This document shows, piece after piece, positions 8,386-27,773 of a stretch of 64,000 nucleotides of DNA. Each line of letters opens with the position of its first letter. The stretch's first letter is position 1. The stretch covers positions 25,251 to 89,250 of the forward strand of contig JAHITE010000007.1 in assembly GCA_018817585.1 (NCBI GenBank). The letters run 5' to 3'. Source of the DNA: Candidatus Omnitrophota bacterium (lineage in GTDB: Bacteria; Omnitrophota; Gorgyraeia; B26-G9). A program made the translations under genes and the position numbers. The notes under the pieces were generated by a model. It was not told where the DNA came from, did no database searches, and saw nothing but the letters and a program-made list of their open reading frames with translations.

Positions 8386-9762
8386 ATGTGTGGAATATTT
8401 GGTATTGCTGGACATAAAGAAGCGGCTCGTTTAACCTATTTAGGTTTGTACGCGCTGCAGCACCGCGGAGAAGAAAGTGCTGGTATTGTCAGTTATGATC
8501 TAGGCAGAATAAATGCTCATCAGGGAATGGGCTTGGTTGAAGACGTTTTTGATGAAAGCGCGATCCGTTCTTTAAAAGGTCCAATAGCTGTTGGTCATGT
8601 TCGCTATTCAACAACTGGATCAAGCCTGGAACGAAATATACAGCCGTTTCTTGTAAATCATAAAAAAGGACATATTGCGATCGCGCATAATGGTAATTTG
8701 ACTAATACCAGCCATTTGCGGGAAACATTAGAAGAGCAGGGATCTATATTTCAGACAACAATGGATTCAGAAGCAATTGTTCATTTTGTCGCGCAATCAA
8801 AGGATCGGGATTATCGTAAAAGAGTAATCCATTCTTTATCTAATTTAGAGGGAGCATACTCATTAGTTATGCTGCTTGATGATGTTTTAGTTGGTGCGCG
8901 TGATCCACATGGTTTTAGGCCTTTATGTTTAGGGAAATTAAACGGGGCTTATGTGCTGGCCAGTGAAACTTGTGCTTTAGATTTGATTCAGGCTGAATAT
9001 ATCCGCGAAATTGAACCAGGCGAGATTGTTTTTATTCGGGATAAAAAATTGGAATCAATGAAACCATTTCCTGAACAAAAACACGCGTTCTGTATTTTTG
9101 AATACATATATTTTGCCAGACCGGATAGTAATATTTTTGGTAAGAATGTTTATCTCACGAGAAAGCGTTTGGGGGAAGAGATGGCAAAAGAATCACCAGC
9201 TGAATGTGATTTGGTTATGCCCATCCCCGATTCAGGTAATTCCGCGGCATTAGGGTTTGCTAAAAAATCAAAAATTCCTTATGAAGTAGGGATGATTAGA
9301 AATCATTATGTCGGTAGAACCTTTATCCAGCCTTCTCAGTTTATAAGAGATTTTCGCGTAAAAGTAAAACTCAATCCAATTAAAGATGTAATAAAAGGTA
9401 AGCGGTTGGCAATTATCGAAGATTCTATTGTTCGCGGGACAACAAGTAGAGCAAGAATAAAGACTATTCGTGAATCCGGAGCAGAAAAAATGCATATGCG
9501 AATCAGTTGTCCTCCGATTAAAGCGCCGTGTTTTTATGGAATTGATTTTCCCACAAAAAAAGAATTAATCGCCGCTAATTATACGGTGAAAGAAATAGAA
9601 AAATTTATGGGCTTAGACAGCTTAAAATATTTAAGCCAAGAAGGTTTATTAAAAGCAATGCTTTTGCCAGCATGTGAATTTTGCACCGCGTGCTTTGATG
9701 GTAATTATCCGACTAAAATCCCTAAGAAATTTTCCAAAAAAATGCTGGAAAAAAAGCGTTAA
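8386..9762 (+). CDS. purF: amidophosphoribosyltransferase
   Basis: MCGIFGI N-terminal nucleophile, PRTase domain, and C-terminal Fe-S cysteines (CEFCTACFDG). Confidence 0.9.
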   Translation: MCGIFGIAGHKEAARLTYLGLYALQHRGEESAGIVSYDLGRINAHQGMGLVEDVFDESAIRSLKGPIAVGHVRYSTTGSSLERNIQPFLVNHKKGHIAIAHNGNLTNTSHLRETLEEQGSIFQTTMDSEAIVHFVAQSKDRDYRKRVIHSLSNLEGAYSLVMLLDDVLVGARDPHGFRPLCLGKLNGAYVLASETCALDLIQAEYIREIEPGEIVFIRDKKLESMKPFPEQKHAFCIFEYIYFARPDSNIFGKNVYLTRKRLGEEMAKESPAECDLVMPIPDSGNSAALGFAKKSKIPYEVGMIRNHYVGRTFIQPSQFIRDFRVKVKLNPIKDVIKGKRLAIIEDSIVRGTTSRARIKTIRESGAEKMHMRISCPPIKAPCFYGIDFPTKKELIAANYTVKEIEKFMGLDSLKYLSQEGLLKAMLLPACEFCTACFDGNYPTKIPKKFSKKMLEKKR

Positions 9763-9906: not shown

Positions 9907-11508
<1,602 letters not shown>

Positions 11509-11512
11509 TAAT

Positions 11513-12211
11513 ATGGTAAAGTCAGAAAAATTATATATTAATGCTTTGAGTGAAATTAGCAAAGCAATCACAAGCGATCTTTATCTTGAAGACATGTTAA
11601 AGCTTATTGTAACTGTAACCGCGAATGTTATGCATACGAAAATTTGCGCACTTTGGCTTTTAGATGAAAAGAAACAAACTTTAAAAATTAAAGCCACTCA
11701 AGCCTTGAGCAGTGAATATTTAAAAGAAAGAAGTATAAATATCGGGGAAGGTGTAGTGGGAATGGTCGCGAAAACTAAGCAATCGATTATCATTGCCGAT
11801 GTTCTTCTGGATCCGCAGTACAAAGAAAAAAAACTAGCAAAAAAAGAAAAGCTTGTTTCAATGCTTAGCGTTCCGATGATGGTTAAGCAAAAAGTGATAG
11901 GTGTTATTAATTGTTATACTACAAAAAAATATGATTTTGAAAAAAGCGATGTGGAAGTTTTAATTACTGTGGCTAATCAGGCTGCTGTTGCAATCGAAAA
12001 TACAGAGCTGCTAGTTAAGACTAGAGTTATTCAGGAAGAGTTAGAGACTAGAAAAAAAGTTGAAAAAGCAAAAGGAATATTGATGAAGGAACAGAAGGTT
12101 GATGAGGATGAAGCTTATAATCTGCTAAGAAAATCAAGTATGTCTAAACGCATGTCTATGAAAGATATCGCTGAAGCAATTATTCTTTCCTTTGAGATCA
12201 AAAGGGGGTAA
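11513..12211 (+). CDS. GAF-ANTAR RNA-binding antiterminator-like regulator
   Basis: GAF-like N-domain plus a C-terminal ANTAR signature (EKAKGILMKEQKVDEDEAYNLLRKSSMSKRMSMKDIAEAII). I prefer the ATG at 11513 (RBS AGGTGA) over the track start at 11483, which overlaps pyrG. Confidence 0.7.
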   Translation: MVKSEKLYINALSEISKAITSDLYLEDMLKLIVTVTANVMHTKICALWLLDEKKQTLKIKATQALSSEYLKERSINIGEGVVGMVAKTKQSIIIADVLLDPQYKEKKLAKKEKLVSMLSVPMMVKQKVIGVINCYTTKKYDFEKSDVEVLITVANQAAVAIENTELLVKTRVIQEELETRKKVEKAKGILMKEQKVDEDEAYNLLRKSSMSKRMSMKDIAEAIILSFEIKRG

Positions 12212-12454
12212 TTAAAAACTGAAAATATTTAAAAAAACGATAAAGAAAGTTCTGGTGAAAAAATTTTTAAAAAGTTTTTTCATTTTTTTTCATTTTTTTC
12301 TTGAAATTAGTATTTATAATGTTGTATATTATAAATTGTAGATACAATATATAGTACAAACATATATTGTGCTTAAAGTGAAGGACATACCAAGATATTG
12401 TGTAGGGGCAAACTTTTAGTGTAAAATATTACTGAAAGAAAGGGGGTGAATATT

Positions 12455-12577
12455 TTGGTAGTCAAAAAGAAAGTAGCAAAGAAGGTAGTAGCTAAGAAAG
12501 TGGTAAAGAAAGTAGCTAAGAAAGTAGTAAAGAAAGCAGTAGCTAAGAAAGTAGTAGCTAAGAAAAAGAAAAAATAA
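12455..12577 (+). CDS. candidate 40-aa lysine/valine-repeat peptide, M(L)VVKKKVAKKVVAKKVVKKVAKKVVKKAVAKKVVAKKKKK; histone-H1-tail-like or cationic amphipathic
   Basis: TTG start 7 nt after a strong RBS (AAAGGGGGTGA) and TAA stop at 12575-12577. Missing from the ORF track because it is short. The DNA is a tandem AAGAAAGTAGTAGCT-type repeat. Confidence 0.3.
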   Translation: MVVKKKVAKKVVAKKVVKKVAKKVVKKAVAKKVVAKKKKK

Positions 12578-12647
12578 ACTTGGCTAGTTCATCTTTGATG
12601 AATACAGGATCCCGATTTTGATTAATTAAACAAGGATGTTATCAATT

Positions 12648-12705
12648 CCCAAGGGCGGGGAAATTAAGCGATCAATAACCCGAAATTTTGTTCCCTGCCT
12701 TTGGG
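12648..12705 (+). ncRNA. stable RNA hairpin: 13-bp stem CCCAAGGGCGGGG / CCCTGCCTTTGGG with two G-U pairs and a 32-nt loop; outer 6-bp helper stem GATCCC/GGGATC (12608-12613 / 12707-12712)
   Basis: Pairing checked by hand. The G-U wobbles work only on the + strand transcript. Confidence 0.35.
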
Positions 12706-12805
12706 AGGGATCAAAGAAAAACCACCTAAAAATCCGCAATCATATTTTGTGATATCTCTTTTTTAATGTTTTTAAGATATATAATTTATAAGTATATATT
12801 CTTTC

Positions 12806-12835
12806 TTGACAATTTTAGTCTTAAGGTTTTAAAAT
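12806..12835 (+). promoter_or_regulatory. sigma70-like promoter TTGACA-17/18-TAAAAT for the PAS-HD-GYP gene
   Basis: Consensus -35 hexamer and AT-rich -10 about 45 nt upstream of the ATG at 12880. Confidence 0.45.
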
Positions 12836-12879: not shown

Positions 12880-14091
12880 ATGAGTGACTTGCCTGAATCG
12901 CGTGAAAAAATACTTTTAGAAATTAATCAATTGCGTAAAAGAGTAGAAGAACTTCAAGGTTCAGAATTGAAATTTCAAAAAGCAGAGCAAGAATTAAGAC
13001 AATCTAAGGAATATGCGGAATTTGTTTTTCGATCTACTCCGAATGCGATTTTCACACTTGATCTCAACCGTATTGTAACAACTTGGAATAACAAAGCTGA
13101 AGAAATAACGGGTTATTCATACAAGGAGATTATCGGTAAACAGTGCACTGTTTTTGCTGATAGCCCCTGTAAGGATATGTGTCCGGTTTTTTCTGATAAT
13201 GTCGAAAAGCCTATTGTTAATGCCGAGTGCTCGATTAAGAGAAAAGATGGGAAGATAATCGTTATTTCAAAAAATGCTGAAATATTAAAAGATGAACAGG
13301 AAAATACTATTGGCGCGATAGAATCATTTGAAGATATTACCGGGAGAAAAAAAGAAGAACAATCGTTTCAAAAATCATATCAAAATTTAGAAATGCAGAT
13401 TCAGGAACGGACTGCGGAACTTTCTAAGATGAATGAAGCTTTACTTGTTGAAATTATGCAAAGAAAAAAAGTACAGAAAAATTTTGAGGATGGCAATGAA
13501 AAATTACAGAGAGTGTTAAATGAAACAATCAGTGCTCTTGCTTTTACAGTTGAAAAAAGGGATCCATATACTGCGGGGCATCAGGAACGAGTAACTCAAC
13601 TGGCAGAAGCAATTGCTCGAGAGATGAAATTATCTACTGATCAGATATTGGGTGTTAAAACCGCGGCAATGATTCATGACATAGGCAAAATTTGTATCCC
13701 TGCGGAAATTTTAAGCAAGCCTTCTAAACTAACTACTTATGAATTTAATATTATTAAAGCCCATCCGGAAGTTGGTTACGATATATTAAAGGACATTGAA
13801 TTTCCTTGGCCTGTTTCTTCAATTGTTGCTCAGCATCATGAAAGAATGGATGGTAGCGGTTATCCTAATTCTTTAAAAGGCAATGAGATATTAATTGAGG
13901 CTCATATCCTAATTGTTGCCGATGTGGTTGAAGCAATGGCTTCTCACCGGCCTTATAGGCCTGCCTTGGGGATTGAGCGGGCTTTAGATGAAATAGTTAG
14001 TAAAAAAGGAACGCTCTATAATGAAGATGTTGTAGTGGCTTGTATTAAGCTATTTATGGAGCAGGGCTTTAAGCTAGAGCAAATAATATAG
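12880..14091 (+). CDS. PAS-domain HD-GYP c-di-GMP phosphodiesterase
   Basis: N-terminal PAS, a coiled-coil linker, and an HD-GYP core (HDIGKICIP ... HHERMDGSGYP). Confidence 0.8.
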   Translation: MSDLPESREKILLEINQLRKRVEELQGSELKFQKAEQELRQSKEYAEFVFRSTPNAIFTLDLNRIVTTWNNKAEEITGYSYKEIIGKQCTVFADSPCKDMCPVFSDNVEKPIVNAECSIKRKDGKIIVISKNAEILKDEQENTIGAIESFEDITGRKKEEQSFQKSYQNLEMQIQERTAELSKMNEALLVEIMQRKKVQKNFEDGNEKLQRVLNETISALAFTVEKRDPYTAGHQERVTQLAEAIAREMKLSTDQILGVKTAAMIHDIGKICIPAEILSKPSKLTTYEFNIIKAHPEVGYDILKDIEFPWPVSSIVAQHHERMDGSGYPNSLKGNEILIEAHILIVADVVEAMASHRPYRPALGIERALDEIVSKKGTLYNEDVVVACIKLFMEQGFKLEQII

Positions 14092-14225: not shown

Positions 14226-14540
14226 TTGAAGAAAAAAATAATGTTTGTAGGTGTGTTTGCTTTGGTTCTGGGCGCAATTTGTATTTCTACATCTTTTGCT
14301 GCAATGCCGGATGCGAATAATGTTAAGGAATTTCATGAAGGAGCGACTGTGGGATGTACAGTTTGTCATACAGAAGGAAACTTTAAAGAACTTAACAGCT
14401 ATGGTAATGCATACAATGATGCTGGTAGAAATGTGGATGCAGTCAAAGCTATTGATGACGAAGATAGTGACGAAGATGGTGTTTCCAACTATGACGAAAT
14501 CAAAGCTGGTACTAATCCAGGTGATGCTACAAGCAAATAA
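14226..14540 (+). CDS. small secreted monoheme c-type-cytochrome-like protein with an acidic Ca-binding (thrombospondin type-3-like) C-terminus
   Basis: TTG start after RBS GGGGGAGG, a signal peptide, a single CxxCH (CTVCH), and a C-terminal DEDSDEDGVSNYDE run. Confidence 0.45.
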   Translation: MKKKIMFVGVFALVLGAICISTSFAAMPDANNVKEFHEGATVGCTVCHTEGNFKELNSYGNAYNDAGRNVDAVKAIDDEDSDEDGVSNYDEIKAGTNPGDATSK

Positions 14541-17560: not shown

Positions 17561-17875
17561 ATGTTTGAAATTTTAGAAAAATTAGTTTTAGCGGGTGTGG
17601 GATTTGCTAGTTTAACTAAGGAAAAAGCAGAAAAAATAGTTGACGCGTTGATTGCTAAGGGGCAGGTTAAAGCCAAGGATAAAAAGGCGATGTTAAGTCG
17701 ATTGCTTAAGCATACGCAAAAACTAGATAAAGATATTGAAAATAAAATGAGACAGGTATCTTTAAATGTAGTAAAAAGTTCGCAAAAACAAATAGATGCT
17801 TTAAATCGGAAATTAGCGCAGTTAAATAAAGATATAAGCAGCGTAAAACAGAAAAGTGGCAAGAAGAAAAAATAG
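17561..17875 (+). CDS. phasin-family (PhaF/PhaI-like) granule-associated protein, copy 1
   Basis: LVLAGVGFASLTKEKAEKIVDALI resembles the phasin WLAGLGA motif. Coiled-coil body, strong RBS AAGGGGG. Confidence 0.5.
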   Translation: MFEILEKLVLAGVGFASLTKEKAEKIVDALIAKGQVKAKDKKAMLSRLLKHTQKLDKDIENKMRQVSLNVVKSSQKQIDALNRKLAQLNKDISSVKQKSGKKKK

Positions 17876-17907: not shown

Positions 17908-18270
17908 ATGTTTGAATTGATTGAAAAAATTATACTCGCTGGTGTTGGCTTGGCAAATTTAACTAGAGAAAAAGCGGAAAGTCTTGTTGATGCTTTGATT
18001 AAAAAAGGGCAAATACAGGCAAAAGATAAAAAGGCAGTTTTAAGCCGGTTGTTAAAAAGCACAGAGCAATTAGATCGTGATCTTGAGAAAAAGATGAAAC
18101 AAGTATCTTTGAGTGTAGTGAAGAATTCCCAGAAGCAGATTGATGCTTTGAATAATAAATTAGCGCAGCTTGCTAAAGCTTTAGAATCAGAAAAGAAAAA
18201 AAGTAAAGTTGTTAAGGCTCCTTTGGCTGTAAAGAAAAAAGTAAAGGCTCAAGCAAAGAAAAAAGTCTAA
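17908..18270 (+). CDS. phasin-family protein, copy 2, with a lysine-rich histone-H1-like tail (KKKSKVVKAPLAVKKKVKAQAKKKV)
   Basis: About 70% identical paralogue of copy 1 plus a basic tail like PhaF. Its stop overlaps the next gene start (TAATG). Confidence 0.5.
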   Translation: MFELIEKIILAGVGLANLTREKAESLVDALIKKGQIQAKDKKAVLSRLLKSTEQLDRDLEKKMKQVSLSVVKNSQKQIDALNNKLAQLAKALESEKKKSKVVKAPLAVKKKVKAQAKKKV

Positions 18271-27697: not shown

Positions 27698-27736
27698 TTT
27701 AAAATTTTAAATATAAAATTAAAGGGATTCCTCTCC

Positions 27737-27773
27737 AGTCTTCTCTGTAGTCTTCTCTGTAGTCTTCTCTTGT
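27737..27773. repeat. 3x tandem 12-mer AGTCTTCTCTGT in a C/T-rich, G-poor tract just after the NMO stop
   Basis: Direct read. Copy 3 has one extra T. Confidence 0.8.

Follow-up and report, generated by a model that had tools for sequence, protein, structure and literature searches.

What does an open reading frame (ORF) built almost entirely of lysine, valine and alanine codons do in a bacterium? The question is raised by a stretch of 64,000 nucleotides (nt) from a Candidatus Omnitrophota genome (contig JAHITE010000007.1, positions 25,251 to 89,250; hereafter the window), in which a short lysine-repeat ORF lies between the gene of a GAF-ANTAR regulator and the gene of a PAS-HD-GYP protein. 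An earlier note, made by reading the sequence, had picked out this ORF of 40 amino acids with a strong ribosome-binding site and a TTG start. Its coordinates and product were as described there, and the coding frame turned out to be conserved in 19 versions. The ORF is followed by a conserved structured RNA that carries an ANTAR-type dual hairpin. We tentatively propose, with a rough probability of 0.45 for the whole chain, that the two encode an mRNA for an oligolysine polycation with a 3′ ANTAR switch run by the adjacent, nitrogen-linked GAF-ANTAR regulator. Coordinates preceded by an L-number (L001, L003, L046 and so on) refer to related loci, for which these numbers are labels; all others are positions in the window.

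A conserved lysine-repeat mini-gene

The mini-gene and its ribosome-binding site are placed as follows.

12455..12577, + strand: oligolysine mini-protein gene with a TTG start, 40 amino acids (20 of them lysine) and a TAA stop at 12575-12577, from the ORF list and homologues
12440..12449, + strand: near-perfect Shine-Dalgarno (SD) sequence AAGGGGGTGA, 5 nt (ATATT) ahead of the TTG

The product, encoded by 40 codons including the start (TTG and 39 sense codons), is MVVKKKVAKKVVAKKVVKKVAKKVVKKAVAKKVVAKKKKK, with a mass of 4.4 kDa and a charge of about +20. The TTG at 12455 is the credible start because the alternative chosen by the ORF lister, GTG at 12446, falls inside the SD sequence. The ORF had been thought unannotated and too short for ORF callers, which proved incorrect: a 40-residue gene was already called at exactly this position on the source contig (ENA ERZ27247128 k141_257512), and homologues are also called in JGI/ENA gene tables, some of them from wrong upstream starts. 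In L088 and L089, for example, the lysine ORF is called from an upstream GTG or ATG, in or before the SD sequence. The calls in these public tables carry no Pfam match, family or name, and ten of the peptide versions were absent from a clustered protein collection on exact-sequence look-up.

For comparison, we gathered 80 loci through the neighbouring GAF-ANTAR protein in species-representative genomes, nearly all of them labelled Omnitrophota or PVC group. Further loci came from a scan of metagenomes for the RNA-motif pattern described below and from exact-protein look-ups of close GAF-ANTAR homologues. Nineteen distinct versions of the mini-gene, 18 of them complete, were found at the same position in Candidatus Omnitrophota contigs. 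They range from 12 to 86 amino acids; among the 18 complete ones, 16 lengths are represented (39-261 nt), all multiples of three. We looked for the frame-breaking changes in repeat number that the earlier note had named as refuting; over the whole range of 12-86 amino acids the frame was never broken. The lengths include single-codon steps (60, 63 and 66 nt), so that slippage of units of 12 or 15 nt does not by itself explain the preserved frame.

All 19 versions have an SD sequence of the form GGGGGTG(A/G), followed after 4-6 nt by TTG (17 versions) or GTG (2 versions), and all begin with M-(V/A)-(V/A/T)-K-K. A lysine run closes each of the 18 complete versions (KKKKK-stop in 16, KKK-stop in 2), and the last codons, AAGAAAAAGAAAAAATAA, are kept at the nucleotide level in most lineages.

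Summed over the 19 versions, the 688 codons comprise K 407, V 158, A 110, T 6, E 3, P 3 and I 1, that is, seven amino acids in all and no arginine. Lysine alone accounts for 59% and K, V and A together for 98%. The third position of AAN codons was a pyrimidine in 0 of 407 cases, against 17% in GTN, GCN and the other codons (P ~4e-33 at equal rates). This pattern is what the genetic code would lead one to expect if lysine must stay lysine while the wobble base of valine and alanine codons may vary. In each repeat, TAG or TAA closes the other two forward frames of the mini-gene, and its reverse-strand frames are not conserved as ORFs. The locus thus carries a conserved gene with a coding signature, well beyond what chance would produce, and we consider its translation very likely.

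Substitutions are also seen within the repeat body. The versions at L095 (3442-3711) and L081, both of 86 amino acids, differ by K-to-E and K-to-I substitutions; changes away from lysine therefore do occur and may be kept, in long versions at any rate. At the DNA level, Tandem Repeats Finder reported an imperfect repeat at 12466-12565 with periods of 12, 15, 27 and 39 and 72-84% matches. A tandem repeat is thus present, as had been noted, although the unit of 15 nt given for it is only one of several registers.

A structured RNA element 3′ of the mini-gene

Alignments, RNAalifold and minimum-free-energy folds of individual loci defined a conserved RNA element downstream of the stop codon.

12608..12712, + strand: conserved structured RNA element with helices P1, P2 and P3
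12608-12613 (GATCCC) with 12707-12712 (GGGATC), + strand: P1, the helix enclosing the element
within 12629-12640, + strand: P2 hairpin, AACA-AGGA-TGTT
12648-12662 (CCCAAGGGCGGGGAA) with 12691-12705 (TTCCCTGCCTTTGGG), + strand: P3, a helix of 15 base pairs (bp) with a variable apical insert of 12-47 nt
12593..12599, + strand: CTTTGAT box, 13-28 nt past the stop, with a possible outer helix to ATCAAAG at 12710-12716

The element follows every complete copy of the ORF, at a distance from stop to P1 that varies between 30 and 61 nt. Its fold was tested on an alignment of 14 sequences, with GAAA standing in for the variable apex; slid pairing partners and 500 shuffles served as controls. In the proposed fold, 92% of cells were paired, compared with 44-62% for slid partners, and 8 pairs were changed on both sides, compared with 1-4 in the slid controls. 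The observed percentage of paired cells, number of double-sided pairs and covariation score were each reached by 0 of the 500 shuffles. The many G-U pairs identify the + strand as the folded strand. A hairpin containing G-U pairs had been recorded earlier at this place; it is present, though not as an isolated structure, being helix P3 of this larger ANTAR-type element, which had been missed.

The element and the ORF occur together. A covariance model of the element matched only loci with the small ORF and none of about 60 other GAF-ANTAR loci. Conversely, a search of metagenomes by the RNA motif alone gave four true matches, each with a K-rich ORF ahead of it, and in two of the four (L082 and L083) the 3′ end of an ANTAR gene lay upstream. 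Because a search by motif alone recovers both the K-rich ORF and the ANTAR gene, ORF and RNA form one unit, and its linkage to the regulator is no product of sampling. Between 12200 and 12900, Rfam 15 gave no family at gathering thresholds and only chance-level matches at E<=10. The RNA element is previously undescribed, and, absent as it is from Rfam 15, could become a family.

In the CTTTGAT box the TT is invariant and the GA nearly invariant in the alignment. Pairing of the outer helix (CTTTGAT with ATCAAAG) is good in the clade of the window but, taken over 14 loci, does no better than shuffles (mean z -0.5). An ORF of 38 amino acids inside the RNA element (12636-12752) was rejected as a gene: its start codon is not kept (ACG instead of ATG in L013), and its frame is interrupted by variable insertions. 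Gene calls in or beside the element at L091 (3528-3659, + strand, 43 amino acids) and L088 (3725-3817, - strand, 30 amino acids) are probably spurious.

An ANTAR-type dual hairpin that excludes helix P3

By its published definition (PMC3369931), the substrate of ANTAR proteins has two mini-hairpins in tandem, each with a stem of 3 bp or more and an A1/G4 hexaloop. A linker of 5-12 nt joins them, and the 5′ base of a terminator forms the second. The RNA element contains such an arrangement (loops in brackets).

12629..12659, + strand: ANTAR-type dual hairpin, AAC[AAGGAT]GTT at 12629-12640, linker ATCAATT at 12641-12647 and CCC[AAGGGC]GGG at 12648-12659

Across the 14 loci, 96% of the cells of the dual hairpin are paired, with double-sided changes in both stems. 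Loop 1 reads A-N-G-G-A-Y in 14/14 aligned loci. Loop 2 reads AA(A/G)GG(C/U) in 13 of them and AAGGAC in the remaining one, L014. The linkers measure 6-8 nt in all aligned loci, and hairpin 2 can fold with its hexaloop in 12/14, L005 and L014 deviating. Since hairpin 2 is built entirely from the 5′ strand of P3, the two structures are mutually exclusive. In L003, hairpin 2 reads CUC[AAGGGC]GAG and is accompanied by two matching changes in the 3′ strand of P3, so that four coordinated substitutions preserve both folds.

The generic dual-hairpin pattern is expected by chance about 0.19 times per kilobase (kb). Because it is so frequent, the assignment rests on conservation and context and not on a single match. 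We regard the RNA element as probably an ANTAR target. An interpretation of its AGGA hairpin as a CsrA site was set aside; the ANTAR motif accounts for the same loop and, in addition, for the second hairpin. The single ACA-NGGA-UGU hairpin resembles the CsrA consensus from systematic evolution of ligands by exponential enrichment. Neither csrA nor hfq was found by tblastn in the window or the loci, which are a small part of each genome.

The GAF-ANTAR regulator and its link to nitrogen assimilation

The presumed trans-acting partner of the RNA switch is encoded next to it.

11513..12211, + strand: GAF-ANTAR regulator gene, 232 amino acids from the ATG at 11513 (242 amino acids from the TTG at 11483)

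Its product matched the Pfam families GAF_2 (2.2e-22) and ANTAR (2.1e-20) and was 100% identical to P0001, a protein named GAF domain protein from Candidatus Omnitrophica. The linkage to the small gene is constant: at every locus with upstream sequence, a GAF-ANTAR gene lies immediately upstream of it.

Orthologous regulators lie beside nitrogen-assimilation genes. In sister lineages without the small ORF (L015, L018, L025, L026, L047, L050, L056, L062 and L065), canonical ANTAR leaders follow the orthologous regulator or lie within a few kb of it. These leaders consist of RAC-hexaloop-GUY, a linker of 4-8 nt, GGC-hexaloop-GCC and a U-tract terminator, and they precede genes for an unknown secreted protein and for Amt, CarA and glutamate dehydrogenase. 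The first hairpin, RAC-hexaloop-GUY, is common to them and to the element of the mini-gene. The leaders were placed as follows.

L047:6724-6800 and 9398-9470; L056:529 and 2838; L062:4392 and 6712; L050:6741; L018:4180; L026:8846: canonical ANTAR leaders
L015 and L065: canonical ANTAR leaders just downstream of the ANTAR gene

In L014 and L091, glnA lies directly upstream of the regulator, and no ANTAR leader was seen before glnA there. Together, the canonical leaders around the orthologous GAF-ANTAR gene make up an apparent nitrogen regulon run by antitermination. The regulator family would then be a nitrogen-assimilation antiterminator, because the leaders front the genes for Amt, CarA and glutamate dehydrogenase and glnA lies upstream. 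Within the 64-kb window and the loci with the lysine ORF, no further ANTAR leader turned up.

Transcription unit and neighbouring genes

The spacer of 670 bp between the regulator and the HD-GYP gene had been described as a leader region. It is not one leader: it contains separate promoter-like sites (12301-12330 and 12806-12835) and further elements in the 5′ untranslated region (UTR) of the mini-gene.

12274..12330, + strand: T-rich tract and predicted sigma-70-like promoter of the mini-gene, with -35 TTGAAA at 12301-12306, a spacer of 18 nt and -10 TATATT at 12325-12330
12344..12370, + strand: 5′UTR hairpin ACAATATAT-AGTACAAAC-ATATATTGT, an inverted repeat of 9 bp, in the window-like clade only
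12390..12408, + strand: conserved 5′UTR box CCAAGATATTGT..GGGG, which repeats ATATTGT of the 3′ arm of the hairpin; in the window, L001-L005, L011, L013 and L081
12806..12835, + strand: predicted promoter of the PAS-HD-GYP gene, TTGACA-18-TAAAAT, 11/12 matches; it bounds the unit and lies outside it
12880-14091, + strand: PAS-HD-GYP gene, downstream of the mini-gene

In a consensus scan, the predicted promoter of the mini-gene had 10/12 matches, and its block cTTGAAAt...TTGTATATTATAAATTGTA is conserved only at loci with the small ORF. L006, L046 and L091 have no HD-GYP gene downstream, yet keep the small gene and the RNA; in L013, L014 and L057 the HD-GYP gene is truncated or different, with the small gene and its flanks unchanged. 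Thus, because it has a conserved promoter-like site of its own and because HD-GYP is absent in three lineages, the mini-gene is not part of an HD-GYP leader. A sequence similar to the promoter-like site of HD-GYP is present in L002. High expression of the mini-gene is plausible in view of the T-rich tract, the conserved -35 and -10 boxes and the nearly complete SD sequence.

In L003 (7240-7290), a canonical terminator with a stem and a U-tract (CTCTTCTT...AAGAAGGGTTTTTTATTTG) was recognized by eye about 70 nt after the RNA element. Its position suggests that in this lineage the RNA element lies inside the transcript of the small gene. No equivalent was obvious in the window.

The 5′UTR is about 115 nt long in the window-like clade, and its hairpin and repeated AUAUUGU box are missing in more distant versions. 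By eye, the stem of the hairpin is kept: an A-U pair is replaced by G-C in L003 and L005, and a G-U pair is found in L081. Its loop AGUAC is conserved, and the hairpin is absent from L014, L046, L057, L082 and L083. The copy of AUAUUGU at 12395-12401 could pair with the same 5′ arm of the hairpin. Hairpin and repeated box might form a second switch or a protein site.

Farther downstream, the gene at 14226-14540 encodes a small secreted protein that contains a TVCH (CxxCH-like) motif and matches TSP3_bac and Temptin_C weakly. It is syntenic in almost all loci and is followed by genes for an RluA-type pseudouridine synthase, UppP and GlgC. Where HD-GYP is absent, its homologue is the first gene after the RNA element.

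Nature of the peptide

The peptide consists of KK(K) units, each followed by one to three residues that are almost only V, A, T or P (with 3 E and 1 I in 688 codons). Among known proteins, those nearest to it in architecture are the H1-like proteins of the Hc2/BpH1 type. Hc2 is built of pentamers of two basic residues, Lys as well as Arg, and three A/V/T/P residues, and its repeat number rises and falls without loss of the reading frame (PMC2848022). Hc2 (HctB)/BpH1 (PF07382) and the mini-protein share units of two basic and two or three A/V/T/P residues, an even spacing of charge and frequent in-frame changes of repeat number among close relatives, and Omnitrophota likewise belong to the PVC group. 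They differ in size (12-86 amino acids for the mini-protein, 165-237 for Hc2), and the mini-protein is Lys-only, has tetramer and pentamer units, lacks non-repetitive flanking domains and has an ANTAR switch as its regulatory context.

With protamines, the C-terminal tails of H1 and AlgP, the mini-protein shares a function that would come from composition, extreme basicity, low complexity and fast change of length. These proteins are unrelated to it by descent; protamines are Arg-rich, and AlgP has KPAA repeats and is much longer. The H1-like AlgP associates with polyphosphate granules (PMC9239181).

Of the two likenesses that the composition had first called to mind, histone-H1/Hc2-type lysine repeats thus remain the closest, whereas that to a cationic amphipathic peptide did not hold up. 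The hydrophobic moment of the whole peptide is only 0.13 at 100 degrees, with a peak of 0.59 at 80 degrees (peak range 80-90). Distant versions contain hardly anything but K and A (MAKKKKAKAKKK is one example) and have no hydrophobic face.

Other lysine-rich or repetitive sequences were seen in passing. At 17561-17875 and 17908-18270 the window contains tandem paralogues, weakly phasin-like or DUF6847-like (Pfam E ~1e-3, sub-threshold), with Lys-rich C-terminal tails. The pair is syntenic in L013 (10220-10915) and is a second genomic site with oligolysine tails, possibly on storage granules. A tiny Arg/Lys-rich ORF, MPCGRKRKLKKVKRHWFKKRRKQQRHKS(K/R), is conserved between L016 (11926-12033) and L076 (2910-3041) and is unrelated to the lysine-repeat gene; we take it to resemble the very small, basic ribosomal protein bS22. 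About 3 copies of a short, GTCTTCTCTGTA-like unit stand in tandem at about 27725-27769 of the window.

A proposed polycation message with a putative ANTAR switch

The explanation that we favour joins these parts. From its own strong-looking promoter, the mini-gene would be transcribed into a short mRNA whose 3′ part may act as an ANTAR-responsive RNA switch. During transcription, the GAF-ANTAR protein would most likely bind both hexaloop hairpins (12629-12659) and so block the 15-bp helix P3, which would otherwise close the 3′ end of the message. In this way, the production or stability of a nitrogen-expensive polycation would be coupled to whatever signal the GAF domain senses. As for the peptide, it is most likely a soluble polycation that would coat or condense polyanions, namely DNA, RNA and possibly polyphosphate, by analogy with the lysine repeats of chlamydial Hc2, Bordetella BpH1, AlgP, H1 tails and protamines. 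The binding by the ANTAR protein, the direction of regulation and the action of the peptide are what we infer from the arrangement of the locus. Selection on the product appears to be favoured by the non-Lys positions, which are almost all V, A or T, by lengths of up to 86 amino acids, and by the strong-looking promoter and SD sequence.

Several results weigh against this explanation. P3 lacks a U-tract, the tails printed after P1 are mostly A-rich (AUCAAAGAAAAA) and a terminator scan found none, so that P3 was rejected as a canonical terminator. Another possible output, pairing of the released 3′ strand of P3 (CCUCC-like) with the SD sequence of the ORF itself, was also rejected, the duplex energies being no better than those of shuffled controls in 14/14 loci. 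The codon choice of the ORF is unlike that of the genome (GTA 74% versus 23%, GCA 71% versus 24%, AAG 39% versus 22%); therefore, effects at the RNA level or of repeat expansion contribute to its sequence. When the peptide was compared with 5.8 billion proteins, 758 candidates shared words with it, none of them at E<=0.001. In hmmscan, Pfam HC2 (PF07382) gave E=0.87 and 10.1 bits against a cutoff of 40 bits, and NCBIfam had no family for the peptide at E<=10. Judged by these searches, no homology of the peptide to any protein family can be shown. Arginine occupies 0 of 407 basic positions, in a genome that uses R at 4% of codons with AGA as the commonest R codon, and this total absence is stricter than a purely electrostatic role needs. 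Finally, for a stable nucleoid protein a length of 12-20 amino acids, as in the shortest versions, is very short.

The output of the element is not classical antitermination, because P3 has no U-tract though these organisms use U-tract terminators elsewhere. For other outputs there are two precedents. The EutX/Rli55 sponge has an ANTAR site without a terminator (PMC5821096), and ANTAR RNAs in mycobacteria are reported to repress translation (10.1101/660928).

The element shares with ANTAR-target RNAs of the eutP/nasF/amiE type of leader the two mini-hairpins, the A1/G4 hexaloops and the competition of hairpin 2 with a stronger downstream helix, and here, too, an ANTAR gene of the cognate type is adjacent. 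It differs from them in that the competing helix has no U-tract, in that a further helix, P1, encloses the motif, and in that it lies 3′ of a translated small ORF and not directly before a regulated operon. With EutX/Rli55 it has in common a terminator-less ANTAR site, a promoter of the constitutive type (here predicted) and a location on an RNA that carries another functional module farther upstream. That module is a lysine-rich ORF here and a B12 riboswitch there; the binding site here can be masked by an internal helix, and sponge activity is here only a candidate role. To our knowledge, neither the combination of an H1/Hc2-like polycation with ANTAR regulation by RNA nor the terminator-less 3′ placement has been described previously.

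Alternative explanations

The chief alternative makes the ORF a sensor in a regulatory RNA, which would be an ANTAR decoy of the EutX/Rli55 kind or else an attenuator of a non-canonical type, with the peptide product irrelevant. The progress of ribosomes over the lysine codons and the terminal KKKKK-stop would decide between P3, in which the ANTAR sites are masked, and the dual hairpin, in which they are exposed. Much of what was found is compatible with such a role. The ANTAR site without a canonical terminator and the constitutive-looking promoter are as in EutX/Rli55 (PMC5821096); ORF and RNA always occur together, and the TTGAT box is only 13-28 nt past the stop. The conservation of the terminal codons AAGAAAAAGAAAAAATAA at the nucleotide level, the absence of any replacement of Lys by Arg, the ORFs of down to 12 codons, the conserved non-AUG start and the codon usage unlike that of the genome would all fit a sensor, as would a regulator in a nitrogen regulon, lysine being a nitrogen-rich amino acid.

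However, a seven-fold range of ORF length, up to 86 codons, would be wasteful in a sensor, and the non-Lys positions, far from drifting freely, are with few exceptions V, A or T. The distance from stop to P1 is variable and, at 30-61 nt, too long for direct contact of the ribosome, and the outer helix that might act as a relay has no statistical support (mean z -0.5). Moreover, there are no canonical ANTAR leaders to compete with in the loci with the lysine ORF or in the 64-kb window. We know of no lysine-sensing leader peptide. We therefore regard a pure sensor as doubtful, though a serious competitor of the polycation message.

In a classical ANTAR antitermination leader, P1 and P3 would terminate transcription, the ANTAR protein would allow read-through into HD-GYP and later genes, and the ORF would be an incidental passenger. 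The order of regulator, promoter, dual hairpin overlapping a strong helix, and downstream genes on the same strand is the expected one, and exactly this logic is found in the sister lineages, directly downstream of the orthologous regulator. Yet none of the printed tails after P1 has a U-tract, whereas the related canonical leaders have clear ones. The downstream gene varies (full HD-GYP, truncated HD-GYP or none) and has a promoter-like site of its own, and the terminator of L003, about 70 nt past the element, places the element within the transcript of the small gene. An incidental ORF would, furthermore, not hold its frame, SD sequence and composition across 19 versions. This explanation is improbable.

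An exported or membrane-active cationic antimicrobial or toxin peptide, suggested by small size, high charge and the alternation of Lys with hydrophobic Val and Ala, is very improbable in view of the low moment and the K/A versions described above, the lack by inspection of a signal or leader sequence and, among neighbour genes with Pfam matches, the lack of any resembling a transporter, immunity or maturation gene. It is equally hard to credit that the locus is an untranslated tandem repeat of DNA or RNA, for example a purine-rich RNA that binds a protein, with the open frame a by-product of units of 12 or 15 nt. The periods reported above, the strongly purine- and A-rich composition with its unusual codon choice, and the fact that slippage by 12 or 15 nt alone would keep lengths divisible by three agree with this alternative, which the earlier note had kept in reserve; the single-codon length steps, the strong SD sequence at ideal spacing and start codon in every version, the restriction to purines in AAN next to all four third bases in GTN and GCN, and the closed or unconserved other frames point to coding.

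Implications

If the polycation message is correct, uncultured Omnitrophota, whose cells are often ultra-small, would have a minimal, repeat-only polycation gene with very fast evolution of length, which would be an extreme new member of the H1/Hc2/protamine-like class.

In a bolder form, which we think unlikely, the product would be a 'bacterial protamine', or translation itself would be the signal, tied in either case to nitrogen sensing through a terminator-less ANTAR switch. Its sharpest version would be a translation-gated decoy: the flux of ribosomes over the Lys codons would set the number of exposed ANTAR sites, and the supply of lysyl-tRNA or nitrogen would feed back on the nitrogen-assimilation regulon. 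If true, such a decoy would be a new combination of a leader-peptide-like sensor with the sequestration of a protein by RNA.

What is known of ANTAR regulators is mostly antitermination and, for mycobacteria, repression of translation. An ANTAR site that acts 3′ of a small ORF without a terminator would, if confirmed, widen the known outputs of this regulator family, and the locus would provide a compact link from nitrogen sensing to a nitrogen-rich structural polycation or to a sensor of the translation of Lys codons.

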